In this document: one piece after another, positions 18,897-38,726 of the stretch
Numbering within the stretch: position 1 is the first letter of the stretch
Layout of the letters: each line of letters starts with the position of its first letter
Assembly (NCBI GenBank): GCA_965205975.1
Contig: OZ242195.1
Coordinates: forward strand, 3,008,001-3,072,000
Direction: 5' to 3'
Length of the DNA: 64,000 bases
DNA from: Candidatus Latescibacterota bacterium
Lineage (GTDB): Bacteria; Latescibacterota; UBA2968
Notes under the pieces: generated by a model
What the model was told of the DNA's origin: nothing
The model's database searches: none
What the model saw: only the letters and a program-made list of their open reading frames with translations
Program-made: the position numbers and the translations under genes

Positions 18897-19913
18897 TTAG
18901 AAGCCAACGCCAACAGAAACGCGAATGGGATATTCATCAAGTGCCTCAGCCCTTGAATACGATACATCCACACCCACACTCTGATCGCCCAACTTCTGAC
19001 GCAAGCCTGCACCCACTGTCCACGACTCGGAGTCATAACCGATCTTGTAACCACCACGCAACGCCAGCATGTTCTGTACCCATGCTTCCGCGCCAAAGTG
19101 ATAACGGTTGATCGAGTCTGTGAAGAACATCTGTTCAACTGCCACTGTGACTGACAGCGGATCACCCAGATTCCCATAGACTTCAGCAGCACCCGACAGG
19201 TTGAATACCATCGGGAAACGCGCCTTCTGACCTATCACGTCCTGGTCGCCGCCCAGATTGCGCATCGACATACCCAGACGTGTGGAATGAAAGCCCGTGT
19301 AAAAGAGCGTACCAAAATCTATGTCATAAGACGAATACGACTGCAAATCCAGGTCTTCCTGAACCCAGCGCAGATTACCACCCACACTCAACTTATCTGT
19401 CACCTGCTTGGCAATGGTCAGACCAACAGCCATGTCGCCTGCTGTGGCCATGCGACCCGTGCCGCCGGGTTGAGATGAGGTGGTCTCTTCAAATTCATCT
19501 GTGGTAAAATACGCAAAGTTGACTGCAAAGGTCGCCACATTCGTCTTGGCACCAATGGCAAACGTCCCCATTGAAGACCCCACAATCCACTTCAGGTAAG
19601 AAGCTGTCAGCGCGTAGCGCTCAATCTGCGTTGCGCCAGCAGGGTTGTAAAACACAGCCGACAGATCATTGCCAACAGACGAATACGCATCGCCCATACC
19701 TGCTGAGCGCGCATTGCCCGTCAGCTTCAAGAATCCATAAGAAGTCGTCGTAACGCGAGCATACTTAATCAGATCCGTTTCAGGAGGCACGCGCGTCCTA
19801 TCCACGGGAAAAGGTCCTAATGAATCCTGAGTCGGCCGCTCTTCCTGAGCCTGTGCATACATCGGCAGGGCAAGCGCAACAGCCAGACCGAAGAGCAGTG
19901 CTTTCTTAAACAT
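18897..19913 (-). CDS. PorV/PorQ family outer-membrane protein (T9SS shuttle-like, UPF0164 type)
   Basis: Signal peptide; FLKL...ARSAGMGDA......D.SAVFYNPAG motif; ALRGGY; terminal F. Confidence 0.85.
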   Translation of the reverse strand: MFKKALLFGLAVALALPMYAQAQEERPTQDSLGPFPVDRTRVPPETDLIKYARVTTTSYGFLKLTGNARSAGMGDAYSSVGNDLSAVFYNPAGATQIERYALTASYLKWIVGSSMGTFAIGAKTNVATFAVNFAYFTTDEFEETTSSQPGGTGRMATAGDMAVGLTIAKQVTDKLSVGGNLRWVQEDLDLQSYSSYDIDFGTLFYTGFHSTRLGMSMRNLGGDQDVIGQKARFPMVFNLSGAAEVYGNLGDPLSVTVAVEQMFFTDSINRYHFGAEAWVQNMLALRGGYKIGYDSESWTVGAGLRQKLGDQSVGVDVSYSRAEALDEYPIRVSVGVGF

Positions 19914-32423: not shown

Positions 32424-33434
32424 TCACATCCAAACAATATAATTGCCCGAATCCACCATAATGCGATGCACATACGTCTCGATCATCGCGTGGTCCCGCT
32501 CGTGTTCTGTAGTCTCTAAGCTAAAAGGCCGCAACACCGGAATCTGCATCTCTGGATCTGTCCAATCTTGCACATAAACCGAAGATTTCATACCACTCAA
32601 CACCACCTGAATATCGGTTATCAAATCATCCGTAAAATGATTGGGCAAATCCCACAGTGCAATCTCGGCATTAAAAGTCTGCAAATCAGATACAAACCGC
32701 GTCTTGTGACTCTGAACAGTCTCATTAAACGCCCGCTGCAACGCGATGCGCCCATCCAAATGCGTACACGTACGCACCAGAGGCCCCAAATCTTTGGGAC
32801 ACACCACCGCGTGAACCGTCGTCACCTTCTCATTCTCCCCCGGCACGGCCACAGCCAGCATCTTTTCTGCAACGCGAGGAGCAAAATCCGTCAAATTTGG
32901 ATCGATAAACTGCCGGTGTTCCAATCCCGGCCAATAAAAATGCCTCCCCACATCCAGGTGTTCGTGCATCTCCAGCAAACCGTGAAACACGCACTCCAGC
33001 ACAGTATTGCCCGCCGAAACGCCATTTGCCGAATCATTCAAATGCGGCACATCCGAAGCCTTCATATCGGTCGGCACAAGTTCGACATCAGAAGTCAACT
33101 CATAAATCGGAGTCTCTCGCCCGCTCGCCAGCGCGTCAAAAAACGAAATGCGCTCGACCGCCTCTGCCATCGCCCCCGCCAGCACCTGCTGTTTGGAAAG
33201 CCCTTTGCCCATCGTGCGAAGCGCGATACCCTCCATCAGCGGCCCTTCGTATTTGCGAAACAGCGCCGACTGCACGTAATCCGTATAACAATCGGCAATC
33301 CACACCGTATCGTAAAACCGCCGCGCGCGCGTTTGAAACCGACACTTCTTGGACAGCGCCTCCCCGAACCGCTCAATAGTCTCTTCAAACGGAACCGTGC
33401 GATCGGCAATAACGATATGATGCGACTCACTCAT
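32424..33434 (-). CDS. YcaO-like family protein (short, divergent)
   Basis: GKGLS..Q..AGAMAEAVER and SANGVSAGNT..E...HGLLEMHE ATP-binding motifs, A..RA..E..Q, D.T.PE..IPV.R. Confidence 0.8.
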   Translation of the reverse strand: MSESHHIVIADRTVPFEETIERFGEALSKKCRFQTRARRFYDTVWIADCYTDYVQSALFRKYEGPLMEGIALRTMGKGLSKQQVLAGAMAEAVERISFFDALASGRETPIYELTSDVELVPTDMKASDVPHLNDSANGVSAGNTVLECVFHGLLEMHEHLDVGRHFYWPGLEHRQFIDPNLTDFAPRVAEKMLAVAVPGENEKVTTVHAVVCPKDLGPLVRTCTHLDGRIALQRAFNETVQSHKTRFVSDLQTFNAEIALWDLPNHFTDDLITDIQVVLSGMKSSVYVQDWTDPEMQIPVLRPFSLETTEHERDHAMIETYVHRIMVDSGNYIVWM

Positions 33435-34564
33435 TGCGCCCGTGCCCGATTCATATCTTCAACCGCCTCGGCAAACCGTCCCATTTGCCGAAACGTCTCC
33501 GCGCGGAGTTCTCGTGCCCATCCATTTTCGGGATCGATATCCAACGCCCGCGTAAAATCTGAAACCGCTGCCTCATACTGCCCCAGCATCCGTCGGGACT
33601 CCCCGCGATTTGCCCAAACCCACGCATCACCATCATCCATCATCACCGCCCGATCAAAATCGATCAGCGACGCCTCGGGATCATTTTCCATCCGCAACGC
33701 GACGCCGCGCCCCATAAGCGCCCACAGATGATCGGGAAAATTCTCCAGCACCCGTGTAAAATCGCGTATTGCTTCGGCACTTCGCCCCAATTGCCGCAAC
33801 ATATCACCCCGCGCGGCCCACAAATCCGGATCACCAGGCGCGACGACGAGTGCGCGGTCAAAATCCAAAAGCGCATCCTCCAATTGACCGATCTCCCGCA
33901 GCACCTCGCCCCGCCCGATCAACGCGCCCAGATGATCGGGCATAGCCTTCAAAGCCTCCCCAAACATCTCCATCGCAGCCCCAGCTTCATCAGCCTGTCG
34001 ATAGACCTCCGCCCGTCCGGCAAACGCATCCGGATGCCCATTGCCCACCGCAATCGCCCGATCAAAATCGCCCGCCGCCGCATCGAAATGCCCCAACTGC
34101 ATCAGCACATGCCCGCGGCTGATCAGCGCGCCAAAATAATCTGCATCCAACGCCAAAACCCGATTGAGATCCCCCAGTGCCTCCTCAAACCGCCCCATCT
34201 CGCGCAGGGTCTCCCCCCGGCTGGCAAGTGCCTGCGTATTGTCCGGATCGAGCGCAACAGCCTTTCCAAAGCTATCTATCGCCGCATCAAAATGCCCCAT
34301 CAACCCGCAGGCAATCGCGCGATTACTCCACACCCATGGATCGTCTGGCGCCAGAGCGATTGCGCGGTCAAAATCCGCAATCGCCGCATCAAATTGTCCC
34401 AATTGTCCATAAGTAATCCCGCGATGCACAAACACAACGGCATCGCTATCACACGCCGCAATCGCCGCATCAAAACCCGCAACAGCCGCTTTCAGATCGC
34501 CACCATCGCGGTGCGCGATGGCGCGCTGAACCACAGCTTCAAAGTCATTTATAGATAGAGGCAT
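33431..34564 (-). CDS. Tetratricopeptide-repeat protein (about 10 TPRs)
   Basis: Regular 34-aa repeats RG....LG....A..DF.RA...P. Start taken at MPLSIND; stop overlaps the ycaO ATG. Confidence 0.9.
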   Translation of the reverse strand: MPLSINDFEAVVQRAIAHRDGGDLKAAVAGFDAAIAACDSDAVVFVHRGITYGQLGQFDAAIADFDRAIALAPDDPWVWSNRAIACGLMGHFDAAIDSFGKAVALDPDNTQALASRGETLREMGRFEEALGDLNRVLALDADYFGALISRGHVLMQLGHFDAAAGDFDRAIAVGNGHPDAFAGRAEVYRQADEAGAAMEMFGEALKAMPDHLGALIGRGEVLREIGQLEDALLDFDRALVVAPGDPDLWAARGDMLRQLGRSAEAIRDFTRVLENFPDHLWALMGRGVALRMENDPEASLIDFDRAVMMDDGDAWVWANRGESRRMLGQYEAAVSDFTRALDIDPENGWARELRAETFRQMGRFAEAVEDMNRARAQ

Positions 34565-34728
34565 AAAAGAAAAAGTGGGAACCGTCAGACACCCAAAACG
34601 TAAACACAATGTAGATAAACCAAACCCCAAAATCAAGCGCAAACCCCGTGACATTTTGCACGCGATTTAGTATATTACAGCGGTCAGAGGTGAGACGACC
34701 CCACCTTATCCTTCTTGTATCTCAAAAC

Positions 34729-34752
34729 GGGCGAGGCATGCCTCGCCCCTAC
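34729..34752. repeat. GTAG-type REP-like palindrome (copy 2)
   Basis: Identical to 6778-6801. Confidence 0.8.
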
Positions 34753-34768
34753 ATTATGGAGGAACACC

Positions 34769-36070
34769 ATGAAACATCTGTGTATTTTTTCTATCGCCCT
34801 ATTTCTGTGCTTATGCACAACAGCTTTTGCCCAGCCCAATGTGGGTGAAAAAGTAGGTGAATTTCAGCTCCAGGCCCTCGACGGCAGATCTTACGGCGTC
34901 AGTCATTCGGCCAATACCGTCTCCGTCCTGTTTTTTGTAGGCTACAACTGAGGAACTTGCATAGGGGCGGGTCCCGCCTTTGAAAGAGATGTTCACCAAC
35001 GGAACAAAGACACAGCCGGCGTACAAGTTCTCACACTCGACAGATACAATGGCAACCGCGCACAGGCGCAATCCTATCTGACACAAGCCAGAGTAACGAC
35101 GCCCATGCTCACCAATGCCTCTGGCGTCTCCGCAACTCTCGGCACTCGCAACGAAGATATCCTGGTCGTTGACCAGGGAGGTATCCTACGCCTCAGAACC
35201 ACGGCAATCGCCACCGGCTCTCATCACCTGATCAACGCGCAAATCGATGCACTACTCAACAAAACGCCTGTTATTTCTCTATTCCCAAACGAGCTTTACT
35301 TTGGCAGAACCCTTGTCGTGGGGCAATCCAAAACCGTAGAGTTTAAGATCGAAAACACCGGTGCAGGTCCCCTCGAAATCACCGGATACTCGGCTCCCGA
35401 AGGCATCACAATGGAGCCATCCACCCTGACCATAGCGCCCGGCGAAAGCAAAACCGTACAAATCACCCTGACGCCAACACAGGCCGGCACATTATCGGGT
35501 AAAATCACCCTCCAGCACGGCGAACAAAGTGTTGGCACACTGGAAGTCCCTTTTCTCGACCTCACCATCGAAGCGCCCCAACTCCCGGTCATTTCACTGA
35601 TTCAGGAAAACTTGAGCCTGGGTGAAATCGAAGTGGGCAAAGACGTCACCACAACATTCACCATCACAAATACTGGCTCGGGTCCACTCACCATCACAGA
35701 CATCCAATCCAACATCGCGGGCATTGCATTTTCAGAAACCCAATTAACAGTGCCACCCGGTCAATCTCAAGACATCACCGTGACTTTCAGTCCGCCAGCC
35801 GAAGGGCCTATCACCGGCACCATCGACGTATTTTCAGACGACCCTGAAAAAGCCTCAATCAGTCTGACCATCACCGGATCGGCCATCTTCATCCCCGCTG
35901 ATCCACGCACCGACTTCGACGGTTCGCGCACCATTAACTTCGCGGACTTCCTCTTGTTCGTAAGTGCCTTTGGCACGACCGATGCAACCTTCGATCTCAA
36001 CGGGTCCGGCACTGTTGACTTTCCCGACTTTCTCATATTCGTCCAGAACTTTGGGAAAACAATCAACTAA
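34769..36070 (+). CDS. Putative selenoprotein: secreted redoxin (UxxC) + two ASH/Ig-like (choice-of-anchor D-like) domains + dockerin-like EF-hand pair
   Basis: Track ORFs 34715-34951 and 35105-36070 are in the same frame, separated only by TGA at 34949-34951. Readthrough gives VLFFVGYN-U-GTC in a thioredoxin-fold context. Signal peptide, GGAGG RBS and a hairpin 11 nt after the UGA. Confidence 0.85.
34963..34981 (+). promoter_or_regulatory. Candidate bacterial SECIS element
   Basis: AGGGGCGG-GTC-CCGCCTTT stem-loop beginning 11 nt downstream of the UGA, with G in the apical loop. Confidence 0.65.
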
Positions 36071-36074
36071 AAAA

Positions 36075-36104
36075 GTAGGGACAACCACTCGGGGTTGTCC
36101 CTAC
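36075..36104. repeat. GTAG-type REP-like hairpin
   Basis: GTAGGGACAACC-actcgg-GGTTGTCCCTAC inverted repeat just after the stop codon. Confidence 0.7.
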
Positions 36105-36132
36105 CCTCTGTAGTTATCCCGCACTATTTTCC

Positions 36133-36834
36133 ATGTCCCACCGCCAAACGCTCATCAACGCATTCAAACGCATCCTCGAAATATCGGATCACGACCATCT
36201 CTATTTGCCCTTTCAACGCGACAGCAAATTGCGGGCAAAACACTTTCCCGGCGCAGGGTCTAAAATCGGGCGAAAAAAACTCATCGACGCATATCTCCTT
36301 GAATTTGGCGACACAAACCCCGACGAAAAATTGCTCCAACACGCCACCTATCCCTGGATTCACGGGTACGACGCCAGCCTCACGCATATTCTCGATGACC
36401 TCCGAAAACACGAAAAAAAAGCACCCGCCGAACTTTCTACGGACCGAAGACGCGCACTCGAAAAGAAATTTACCCGCACGGGTGCCGAAGAAATCTCTGC
36501 CTTCTGGAGCGTATATGCCGCCGCCGACAACAGCTATCGCAAAAGCGTCATAGAAATGCTAGCCCGCGTCAAACCACCCGAAACGGCCCCCCCGACCGTT
36601 CAGCCTACACAAAAGCCCACAACTCGCGCCCCCTCTCAAATAGAACCCACCACACAGTCGGGATATGCTTTGATGGGCGCGCTTATCTTCTTTGTCCCCA
36701 CCTTTATATTTACTATAATACAATATTGGCGACTCCCAAATGAAAGCCACTATATCGCCTTATCAATCGCCGGATTTTTTGGGATAGTCACACTCATCTT
36801 CCTCATCGACTACTTGCGTAAACGCAACACATGA
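36133..36834 (+). CDS. Hypothetical membrane protein (two C-terminal TM helices)
   Basis: Codon bias matches neighbours; Pro/Thr linker followed by two hydrophobic helices. Confidence 0.6.
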   Translation: MSHRQTLINAFKRILEISDHDHLYLPFQRDSKLRAKHFPGAGSKIGRKKLIDAYLLEFGDTNPDEKLLQHATYPWIHGYDASLTHILDDLRKHEKKAPAELSTDRRRALEKKFTRTGAEEISAFWSVYAAADNSYRKSVIEMLARVKPPETAPPTVQPTQKPTTRAPSQIEPTTQSGYALMGALIFFVPTFIFTIIQYWRLPNESHYIALSIAGFFGIVTLIFLIDYLRKRNT

Positions 36835-38726
36835 CCACAATGAACAAAGGCACCTACCCCCGGCCCCTTCCTGAGAGGAAGGGGAGAAAACCTACCATCC
36901 CTCGCTTCTTGCCCTTCATCTGCGTCCATCTGCGTCATCTGCGGATAATGATCTCCACCGTCCTCTTTCTCACCCTCCCGCTTCGCTCCTGGGCAGTTCC
37001 CCTTCAGATCGGCGACAGCCTCAATGATTTTGCCCTTGCCGACCTCAACGGCTCGTCCGTTACCCTCAGTGATTTATCTCAGAACCGCGCACTCGTCATC
37101 ATCTTCAGTTCCGTCGTCTGCCCCGCCTCGCTAAAATACGACATACACCGCACACAAATACACGAACAATATGCCCCCAGAGGTGTACACCTGATATCTG
37201 TAAATGCCAATTTTAACGAAACCGACAAAGACATCAAAGAACACTACGCCCAAAACCCCGTACCCTTCGCTGTCCTGCGCGACCCGCACAACAAACTCGC
37301 CGATCATCTCGGCGCAACACATACCCCCCATGCCTTTCTCTTTGACGCCCAACGCCGCCTGCGCTACAAGGGCGAAATCGACAACGGCTGGGGCGTACCC
37401 GAAGACACGACCTCGCGCGGTTTATGGGACGCCCTCGATGCACTGCTCGCCAACCGCGAAATTATCAACACCAACCTGCCCAGTTTTGGCTGTGAAATCA
37501 GACGCACACCCCGGCCAACAACTGTGGCGAACACCTCTACCCCAACATTTTATCGCGACATCTTGCCCCTGCTCCAAAACCGCTGCCAGAACTGCCATCG
37601 CCCTGGCGGTATCGGTCGCGTACCCTTTTTCGACTACACAGAAGTACTCGCCTGGGCCTATCAGATGCGCGACTCCATCGAAGCCCGCATCATGCCGCCC
37701 TGGAAAGCGCGCCCAGAATACGGCGACTTCAAAAATTCCCGCAGACTCACAGACGCCGAAATACACACCTTCGCGCAATGGGTCAACAGCGGCCTGCCAG
37801 AGGGCGATCCCTCCGACCAGCCCGAACCTCTCACATTTGCCAAAAGCTGGACCCTGGGCACGCCCGATCTGATCCTCGAACCCGAAGCACCCTATTCACT
37901 CGAAGCCGTGGGGCGCGATGAATACCGCTGCTTTGTCTTGCCCACAAAACAGGACACAGGCAACTACGTATCGGCTATTGAAGTCCTGCCCGGAGAACGC
38001 GAAGTCGTCCACCACGTCAGCGTGTACATAGACATCTCTGGCAAAGCGCGCCTGCAACAGAAAAACGCATCATCGCCGGGCTACCCTTGCTTTGGCGGAA
38101 TTGGCGTGCCCATCTACGAATCCCTGGGCGGTTGGGCACCCGGCAACACCCCCTTTGTCCTTCCAGATGGCACAGGCCGCGATTTACCGCCCAACAGCGA
38201 CATCATACTTCAGATCCACTATCACAAAATTGGTCGCGCCGTAAAAGATCACTCCCGACTGGGAATCTACTTTGCCAAAAAACCCGTCCAGAAACAGCTC
38301 AGAGAAGAAGCCATCAACAGCCGTTTGCTCTTCATTCCGCCCAACATCAAACGACACAGAGTAACCGGAGCAATCACCATCACCCGCGACCAGCACCTGC
38401 TCGGCATCTTGCCGCACATGCACCTGCTCGGCACAGAAATGAAAATAACCGCAACCTATCCCGACGGCACACAACACCCCTTAATATGGGTTAAACCCTA
38501 TGACTTCAACTGGCAAGAAACCTATGTGTACAAAACACCCGTCGCACTCCCGCGCGGTACCCGCATCGCGCTCGAAGCCTTTTACGACAACTCTGCCGAC
38601 AACCCCCGAAATCCCAACAATCCACCCAGGCTGGTGCGATGGGGCGAAAAATCAACCGATGAAATGTGTACCGCATTTCTCTATGTCACGCACGATGATG
38701 AAAATTTAGAAACAGGTAAGAAATGA
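36831..38726 (+). CDS. Redoxin (AhpC/TSA) + monoheme cytochrome c + copper type II ascorbate-dependent monooxygenase-like fusion
   Basis: CPAS redoxin motif, TP.AF, GCEI; CQNCH and MPPW; VHHV, QIHYH, PHMHLLG, YDFNWQ and DEMC motifs. Start is 36831 (ATGA overlap) or 36948. Confidence 0.8.
   Translation: MTTMNKGTYPRPLPERKGRKPTIPRFLPFICVHLRHLRIMISTVLFLTLPLRSWAVPLQIGDSLNDFALADLNGSSVTLSDLSQNRALVIIFSSVVCPASLKYDIHRTQIHEQYAPRGVHLISVNANFNETDKDIKEHYAQNPVPFAVLRDPHNKLADHLGATHTPHAFLFDAQRRLRYKGEIDNGWGVPEDTTSRGLWDALDALLANREIINTNLPSFGCEIRRTPRPTTVANTSTPTFYRDILPLLQNRCQNCHRPGGIGRVPFFDYTEVLAWAYQMRDSIEARIMPPWKARPEYGDFKNSRRLTDAEIHTFAQWVNSGLPEGDPSDQPEPLTFAKSWTLGTPDLILEPEAPYSLEAVGRDEYRCFVLPTKQDTGNYVSAIEVLPGEREVVHHVSVYIDISGKARLQQKNASSPGYPCFGGIGVPIYESLGGWAPGNTPFVLPDGTGRDLPPNSDIILQIHYHKIGRAVKDHSRLGIYFAKKPVQKQLREEAINSRLLFIPPNIKRHRVTGAITITRDQHLLGILPHMHLLGTEMKITATYPDGTQHPLIWVKPYDFNWQETYVYKTPVALPRGTRIALEAFYDNSADNPRNPNNPPRLVRWGEKSTDEMCTAFLYVTHDDENLETGKK

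Follow-up and report, generated by a model that had tools for sequence, protein, structure and literature searches.

The window analysed here, a 64,000-nucleotide stretch of a Candidatus Latescibacterota genome that is 98% complete in one contig, carries on its forward strand a single 433-codon frame, interrupted once by an internal TGA and closed by TAA. Read through, the frame encodes a predicted signal peptide, a redoxin domain of the TlpA/ResA fold, two ASH-type Ig-like domains and a type-II-like dockerin. The TGA falls at residue 61 and Cys64 lies three codons on, which gives the UxxC context FFVGYN-U-GTC. In most orthologues, 370-373 codons follow the TGA with the frame kept. The features of the locus are collected in the table below; the signal peptide was called by eye and from hydropathy, and the Cys homologues have N-termini similar to it.

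Table. Features of the selenoprotein gene in the window, with the basis of each assignment
Feature	Positions	Strand	Basis
Ribosome-binding site GGAGG	34758..34762	+	sequence; 6 nt upstream of ATG
Whole gene	34769..36070	+	433 aa with U61, TAA end; same frame in orthologues
Predicted signal peptide, aa 1-21	34769..34831	+	basic start, hydrophobic core, A-x-A end
TlpA/ResA-fold redoxin domain, aa 22-164, U61-G-T-C64	34832..35260	+	AhpC-TSA 28.7 bits; VIA-align
In-frame TGA, inferred selenocysteine codon	34949..34951	+	conservation, Cys homologues, four runs
Bacterial SECIS-type hairpin	34962..34982	+	G-first loop at about +19 to +22; folding and comparative test
Glu129 at the cis-Pro/peroxiredoxin-Arg column	35153..35155	+	alignment to 3kcm; column counts
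Ig-like ASH/choice-of-anchor D domain 1, about aa 166-268	35264..35572	+	domain scans, model
Ig-like ASH/choice-of-anchor D domain 2, about aa 273-373	35585..35887	+	domain scans, model
Dockerin-like module, two calcium-loop/helix repeats, about aa 378-430	35900..36058	+	2y3n_B match

A preliminary description of this DNA had proposed that one in-frame TGA splits two open reading frames, that readthrough restores an uninterrupted redoxin, and that standard annotation would miss the gene. These proposals hold. The AhpC-TSA match runs across the TGA, from aa 25 to 136 (E 1.7e-5), and gene calling with Table 11 yields a 60-codon piece and a separate 321-aa ORF at 35105-36070. The protein database contains fragments of 321-322 aa, of which two bear the name 'choice-of-anchor D domain-containing protein' after the Ig repeats, together with a 63-aa piece ending at the TGA site. 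An AlphaFold2 model with Cys at position 61 has a mean pLDDT of 85.5 and shows four separate domains, with a pTM of 0.43.

Relatives at 80-90% identity come from named Latescibacterota records at 11 of 12 loci, and the sequencing runs with related sequence are sponge or marine metagenomes where labelled. Metatranscriptome contigs cover the gene, a coverage that says nothing on transcription or its level. Gene neighbours are syntenic upstream at all 11 genus loci and downstream at 10 of 11, one locus ending early; this synteny reflects close kinship and gives no functional lead. The divergent gene upstream, 32424-34654 (-), encodes a TPR protein and overlaps a YcaO-like gene, and beyond this pair lie FGE-sulfatase-like and multiheme cytochrome genes. 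A fusion protein of 631 aa, in which a redoxin and a CxxCH stretch are combined with copper type II monooxygenase domains, is encoded downstream in the same orientation, at 36831-38726 (+). Palindromes flank the gene on both sides (34729-34753 and 36076-36104). The upstream one, which we take to be REP-like, is a genome-wide repeat whose two 16-mers occur 68 and 26 times. An Rfam scan of 34600-36200 returned no match; the only sigma-70-like site seen, at 34648-34676, is at chance level, and a terminator-like site was not found.

The TGA is almost certainly decoded as selenocysteine, a reading for which comparative evidence from across the phylum argues strongly. The preliminary description had linked this idea to the presence of selenocysteine machinery, and selA, selB, selD and tRNA-Sec (selC) are all found in the genome, each over its cut-off; selD itself contains one TGA. 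Homology extends over both sides of the UGA, which aligns to the conserved Cys of homologues. A search of 41 genomes matched 39, and TGA followed by xxC occurs at all 33 aligned sites (30 loci fetched, window included). A profile search of 168 phylum genomes matched 107. Among the 150 matches listed, of 172, exactly one TGA is present in 143 and none in 5, while one match has a TAA and another a TGA plus a TAG. At 20 hand-picked distant loci where the position of the TGA was checked directly, 19 domains are UxxC and 5 are CxxC.

Wider homologues agree with this assignment. The 150 best cluster representatives yielded 163 aligned domains, with CxxC in 149, CxxY in one, AxxC in four and TxxC in one. 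The selenocysteine column therefore holds Cys in 150 of the 155 domains that cover it (8 of the 163 do not) and Trp in none, in keeping with the Cys homologues that the preliminary description had anticipated. Full-length homologues of 440 aa with the same architecture include seven with CxxC and one (P0089) without the motif. Contigs from four further runs, belonging to four studies, carry the TGA and the hairpin letters unchanged across 34880-35040 in all four cases, and no other letter appears at the TGA. TGA is also the commonest stop at long-ORF ends (1253 of 3036) and ends many genes, including orthologues of the window gene; reassignment of the genetic code is therefore rejected.

The exchange between selenocysteine and cysteine appears to have taken place repeatedly within the family. 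On a tree of 69 hand-picked rows, built on few columns and rooted at the midpoint, the Sec/Cys label needs six changes, at least five of which are forced by well-supported branches, and the exchange therefore looks recurrent. Three genomes with selA (G087, G088 and G079) contain both Sec and Cys paralogues, and G082, which is 80% complete, has the TGA form and no selA match. Tandem arrays also place Sec and Cys paralogues side by side at L083 (G036:C1:5118500-5126000), L079 and L082, where some of the Cys copies retain a weakened hairpin.

The preliminary description placed a hairpin 11 nt after the UGA and likened it to that of fdhF. The hairpin itself is present and the distance needs correction, as pairing runs from +11 to +31 past the TGA (-11.0 kcal/mol) and leaves a spacer of 10 nt. 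The likeness is also borne out, since GGTC begins at +19 both here and in E. coli fdhF (NC_000913.3). Taken alone, the hairpin is not above chance against dinucleotide shuffles (z about -1.1), and similar hairpins occur genome-wide after 461 of 9810 TAA, 415 of 6524 TAG and 1011 of 16718 TGA codons, or 5-6%. A genome-wide scan for TGA, hairpin and Cys motif was accordingly dropped as a selenoproteome list, because it did not discriminate TGA from TAA or TAG.

Support for the hairpin comes from a comparative recoding test, not from the hairpin alone. The bSECIS model used here takes its constraints from section 5 of PMC13188914, with spacing limited to 16-24 nt. Of 47 distinct TGA contexts, 37 pass it, whereas on average only 6.3% of their synonymous recodings (300 per context) do so; the 47 contexts are related and so not independent trials. 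None of five Cys contexts passes. All 47 TGA contexts fold better than their own recoded mean, and every one of them has G at +15, a third codon position, and at +19. The window passes at -11.0 and beats 99.7% of its own recodings; a paralogue from the same genome is among the ten contexts that fail. Lineages differ in stem register, and a single fixed register for all homologues did not hold, which is why no covariance model is given. Synonymous conservation among 21 genus orthologues is 0.97 in the hairpin versus 0.82 elsewhere; since the hairpin ranks only second of 143 windows, this support is modest. Overall, with protein sequence controlled for, the signal is clear and indicates that the hairpin after the TGA is under selection.

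Structurally, the domain around the UxxC pair is a thioredoxin fold with a CxxC-type pair at the start of helix 1. When scored in isolation, it reaches 28.7 bits with PF00578, over the cut-off of 26, and 20.1 bits with PF08534, under the cut-off of 26.6. VIA-align gives Z scores of 20.0 to 2ls5, 19.0 to 3gl3 and 18.3 to ResA (2f9s), with an rmsd of about 2 A, and a profile search concurs with a TlpA/ResA/DsbE-like fold. The position of the thioredoxin cis-proline, ahead of the third core strand, is occupied differently, here by Glu129. By sequence alignment, Pro is found at this column in 0 of 40 close and 0 of 24 distant family domains; among the 163 wider homologous domains, Asp takes it in 129 and Pro in 4, and the residues seen there vary (D, E, Q, S, N, T, G, H). 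The peroxiredoxin PxxxTxxC/U motif and Arg are absent as well, the motif here being GYNUGTC and the column Glu.

The thioredoxin cis-proline is more conserved than CxxC itself; it probably contributes to the binding of polypeptide substrates and may keep metals from binding, and its position is Arg in peroxiredoxins (PMC2757866). Because the column counts show neither residue, these domains appear to form a subfamily with a TlpA-type dithiol role, yet without the defining feature of TlpA proteins and of peroxiredoxins. The catalytic type is therefore uncertain, and the missing cis-proline suggests that the substrate is not a classical protein disulfide. The genome encodes one DsbD_TM protein and no DsbB match was found in it, a combination that fits a reducing role.

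The remaining domains also match what the preliminary description had read in the translation. Its two ASH/choice-of-anchor-D repeats score 103.5 bits with NF012200 (cut-off 45), and its paired dockerin-like tail finds its best PDB match, by sequence and by fold, in the type II dockerin 2y3n_B (E 7.6e-13; TM about 0.8). Domain scans class the tail as EF-hand/dockerin-like, and scores with the dockerin families stay under cut-off (Dockerin_1 18.9 vs 22.9; dockerin_GC 23.8 vs 29). A search with a profile derived from the copies in this genome identifies 62 ORFs with the module, which is C-terminal in 29, N-terminal in 23 and internal in 10. With so many copies N-terminal or internal, the tail thus looks like a portable binding module and not a C-terminal export signal. 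Stalks in the family span two to five Ig repeats. Two tandem paralogues at about G000:C1:3285200-3281000 (-), locus L047, follow the same plan: both have a UPTC redoxin and a dockerin tail, with five Ig repeats in one and four in the other.

Relatives often end differently. An NCBIfam scan finds no C-terminal T9SS type A sorting domain on the window protein. The 19 distant Sec forms comprise nine with a dockerin, seven with a CTD-like tail, two with a short WGxxK end and one that is cut off, and at least six of the seven CTD-like tails exceed the T9SS type A cut-off. Among the Cys homologues, a T9SS tail is over cut-off in 27 of 39, a set hand-picked from 150 hits in favour of those near 260 aa. 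The same redoxin domain therefore seems, by these comparisons, to take interchangeable tails in a phylum-wide family. The genome itself encodes SprA, and 15 PorV-family genes and 12 T9SS-tail matches in it exceed their cut-offs; a PorU-like gene stays under cut-off (271.5 vs 420). The 15 PorV-family genes thus stand against one SprA, and one of them lies in the window at 18906-19748 (-).

Candidates for the cohesin-like partners that the preliminary description suggested looking for are present in this genome, which encodes three cohesin-like domains, each single and each directly before a T9SS tail. Two of them sit on giant proteins, encoded by minus-strand ORFs at 3913195 and 3908736, that carry their own adjacent dockerin; at G000:C1:3913195-3902884 (-), three large T9SS-tail proteins are adjacent, and two of these end in dockerin, cohesin and tail. 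The third belongs to a conserved 268-aa protein made of a signal peptide, a cohesin and a T9SS tail. This protein, a candidate dedicated anchor, is encoded at L101:5574-6380 (+), G000:C1:1293573-1294379, and has 1164 hits at E 1e-20, many of them probably through the tail alone. Cohesin matches are present in all 31 family genomes. A tandem-cohesin scaffoldin was not found in this genome, only single-cohesin proteins, a search in which divergent cohesins could be missed. The 62 dockerin-like ORFs thus compare with only 3 cohesin-like domains. A predicted complex of the tail and one of the three cohesins, that of the 268-aa adaptor, scored 0.16 (mark, 0.32), a value that speaks neither for nor against the pairing.

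These elements can be assembled into a model whose parts differ in strength. Export past the inner membrane is highly probable, docking on a cohesin anchor is a reasonably probable but predicted pairing, and a surface location is evenly balanced. Taken together, the evidence leans slightly towards a selenocysteine UxxC enzyme that is exported, acts as a reductant and is held by its dockerin, through a two-Ig stalk, on a T9SS-tagged cohesin anchor. Comparative evidence argues strongly for the first step, in which SelB and tRNA-Sec, directed by the hairpin at +11 to +31, would decode the UGA. The signal peptide would then carry the protein over the inner membrane, where U61 would attack the substrate and C64 would resolve the intermediate as a selenenylsulfide, which is established chemistry for a UxxC pair. 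Electrons would come from the genome's DsbD/CcdA-type protein, and the enzyme is likely a reductant, of disulfide or peroxide, outside the cytoplasm. Finally, the calcium-loop dockerin would bind one of the three single-cohesin T9SS-tail proteins, so that docking may do the placing job that the T9SS tail does directly in relatives.

Docking on a T9SS-tail cohesin anchor is the simplest reading of the tail, which leaves the step across the outer membrane. The tail-less protein may ride with its adaptor or stay periplasmic. A wider form of the model is doubtful, namely that the phylum has cis-proline-free surface selenoenzymes exported by T9SS, either through their own tail or by piggy-back on a cohesin adaptor. 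If it is true, a general system of surface docking and piggy-back export serves about 60 dockerin proteins of this bacterium.

Lacking a T9SS tail, the window protein may remain in the periplasm, and this leads to the most substantial alternative, which we consider unlikely but worth weighing: a real selenoprotein that works as a periplasmic TlpA/ResA-like reductase, with a tail that binds calcium or a periplasmic partner instead of bringing the protein to the surface. Its closest folds, ResA, DsbE and CcmG, are periplasmic or membrane-side reductases, and the genome holds a DsbD-type electron source, which acts in the periplasm. The dockerin-like module, N-terminal in 23 of 62 ORFs, is hence no C-terminal export signal. 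Surface placement is nevertheless suggested by the T9SS tail on the same domain in many homologues, by stalks of two to five Ig repeats, which suit surface display, and by the location of all three cohesin-like domains on T9SS-tail proteins.

The loss of the cis-proline raises a further alternative, in which the U/C pair is no disulfide catalyst and forms a metal-binding or small-molecule site, for example a dehalogenating, deiodinase-like one. None of the 40 and 24 aligned family domains has Pro at the column, only 4 of the 163 wider homologues do, and cis-proline may prevent metal binding (PMC2757866). For 25 of 39 homologues the five best matches include the deiodinase-related model NF038285, with every score far under cut-off, and the deiodinase family PF00837 reaches a sub-threshold E of 0.0016 in one of nine. 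Against this stand the variable residue at the column, which offers no fixed ligand, the position of deiodinase 4tr4 at rank 43 (Z 13.6, rmsd 4.4), well below the TlpA/ResA proteins, and the lack of metal-handling or halogen genes among the neighbours scanned. We regard such a site as improbable. That the TGA is instead a true stop, in a pseudogene, a split gene or through sequencing error, or is read as Trp or Gly, could be argued from the database fragments of 321-322 aa and the 63-aa piece ending at the site. This reading is effectively refuted, since the TGA stands phylum-wide at a Cys column, is unchanged in four of four runs and is followed by a selected hairpin, and since TGA ends many genes, including orthologues.

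Comparison with known systems separates familiar from new elements. A tabulation of 119 selenoprotein families includes UxxC entries under PF00578 and PF08534 (PMC13188914). The window protein shares with these, the 'Prx-like thiol:disulfide oxidoreductase' and the 'Redoxin family protein', the UxxC motif, a single Sec and a hairpin just after the UGA. Judged by the descriptions, it is set apart from the UxxC entries of Table 1 in that paper, as no row names an Ig, dockerin or T9SS-tail fusion, and the words 'secreted' and 'choice-of-anchor' do not occur in the portions of PMC13188914 that were covered. None of the NCBIfam selenoprotein models reaches its cut-off on the window protein. Its Ig domains match DUF1573/OS_HP2 (PF07610, NF041425) weakly, at 61.9 bits with a cut-off of 100; unlike that family, which has a UGC motif (PMC13188914), they contain neither Cys nor Sec.

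The protein resembles TlpA, ResA, DsbE and CcmG (2ls5, 3gl3, 2f9s) in fold, dithiol position and export, the last being a prediction here. Unlike them, it has Sec in place of the first Cys and Glu in place of the cis-Pro, lacks a membrane anchor, and adds an Ig stalk and a dockerin tail. The tail is like the type II pairs of 2y3n in dockerin sequence and fold. A cellulosome-like, CTD-anchored dockerin-cohesin system has been inferred for Ca. Stygibacter of the Cloacimonadota (PMC8542988). Both systems combine signal-peptide proteins that end in a dockerin with cohesin proteins that have a C-terminal attachment domain; here, in contrast, the cohesins are only single, the cargo is a redox selenoprotein instead of a hydrolase, and binding is predicted.

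Exported selenoproteins are known in the form of the signal-peptide-bearing Sao proteins (bioRxiv 10.1101/2022.07.06.499078), and PMC8318568, in the parts covered, mentions Latescibacteria only as a recovered genome. A literature search covering mainly freely available main texts found no report of a selenoprotein with a dockerin or T9SS tail and nothing on Latescibacterota selenoproteins. UxxC redoxins are a catalogued class, and no paper on their fusion to Ig domains and dockerin or T9SS tails came up in that search. A domain apparently without both the cis-proline and the peroxiredoxin Arg, and the apparent replacement of the dockerin by a T9SS tail in relatives, are newly observed here.

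These findings add a subfamily of selenoproteins with predicted export, which has matches in 107 of the 168 genomes searched from a single uncultured phylum and appears in the protein set searched as fragments named only for their Ig repeats. The exchange of dockerin and T9SS tail on one enzyme domain offers a natural test of non-cellulosomal dockerin function. Moreover, Sec and Cys paralogues in single genomes allow a direct test of selenium's contribution outside the cytoplasm, in a thioredoxin fold that lacks its most conserved residue.

Other candidate loci show further variation. Redoxin-like frames with an active-site TGA occur at G000:C1:4716401 (-), 1534015 (-) and 392750 (+), in the contexts TGGUT, WUPHC and TWUK and with weak profile matches. 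A CxxU protein at 4439674 (+) is SelW-type in appearance, and we presume that it belongs to that type. At L088:737-2479 (+), in G115, a Sec redoxin is joined to a serine beta-lactamase-like/D-aminopeptidase domain and a CTD-like tail.
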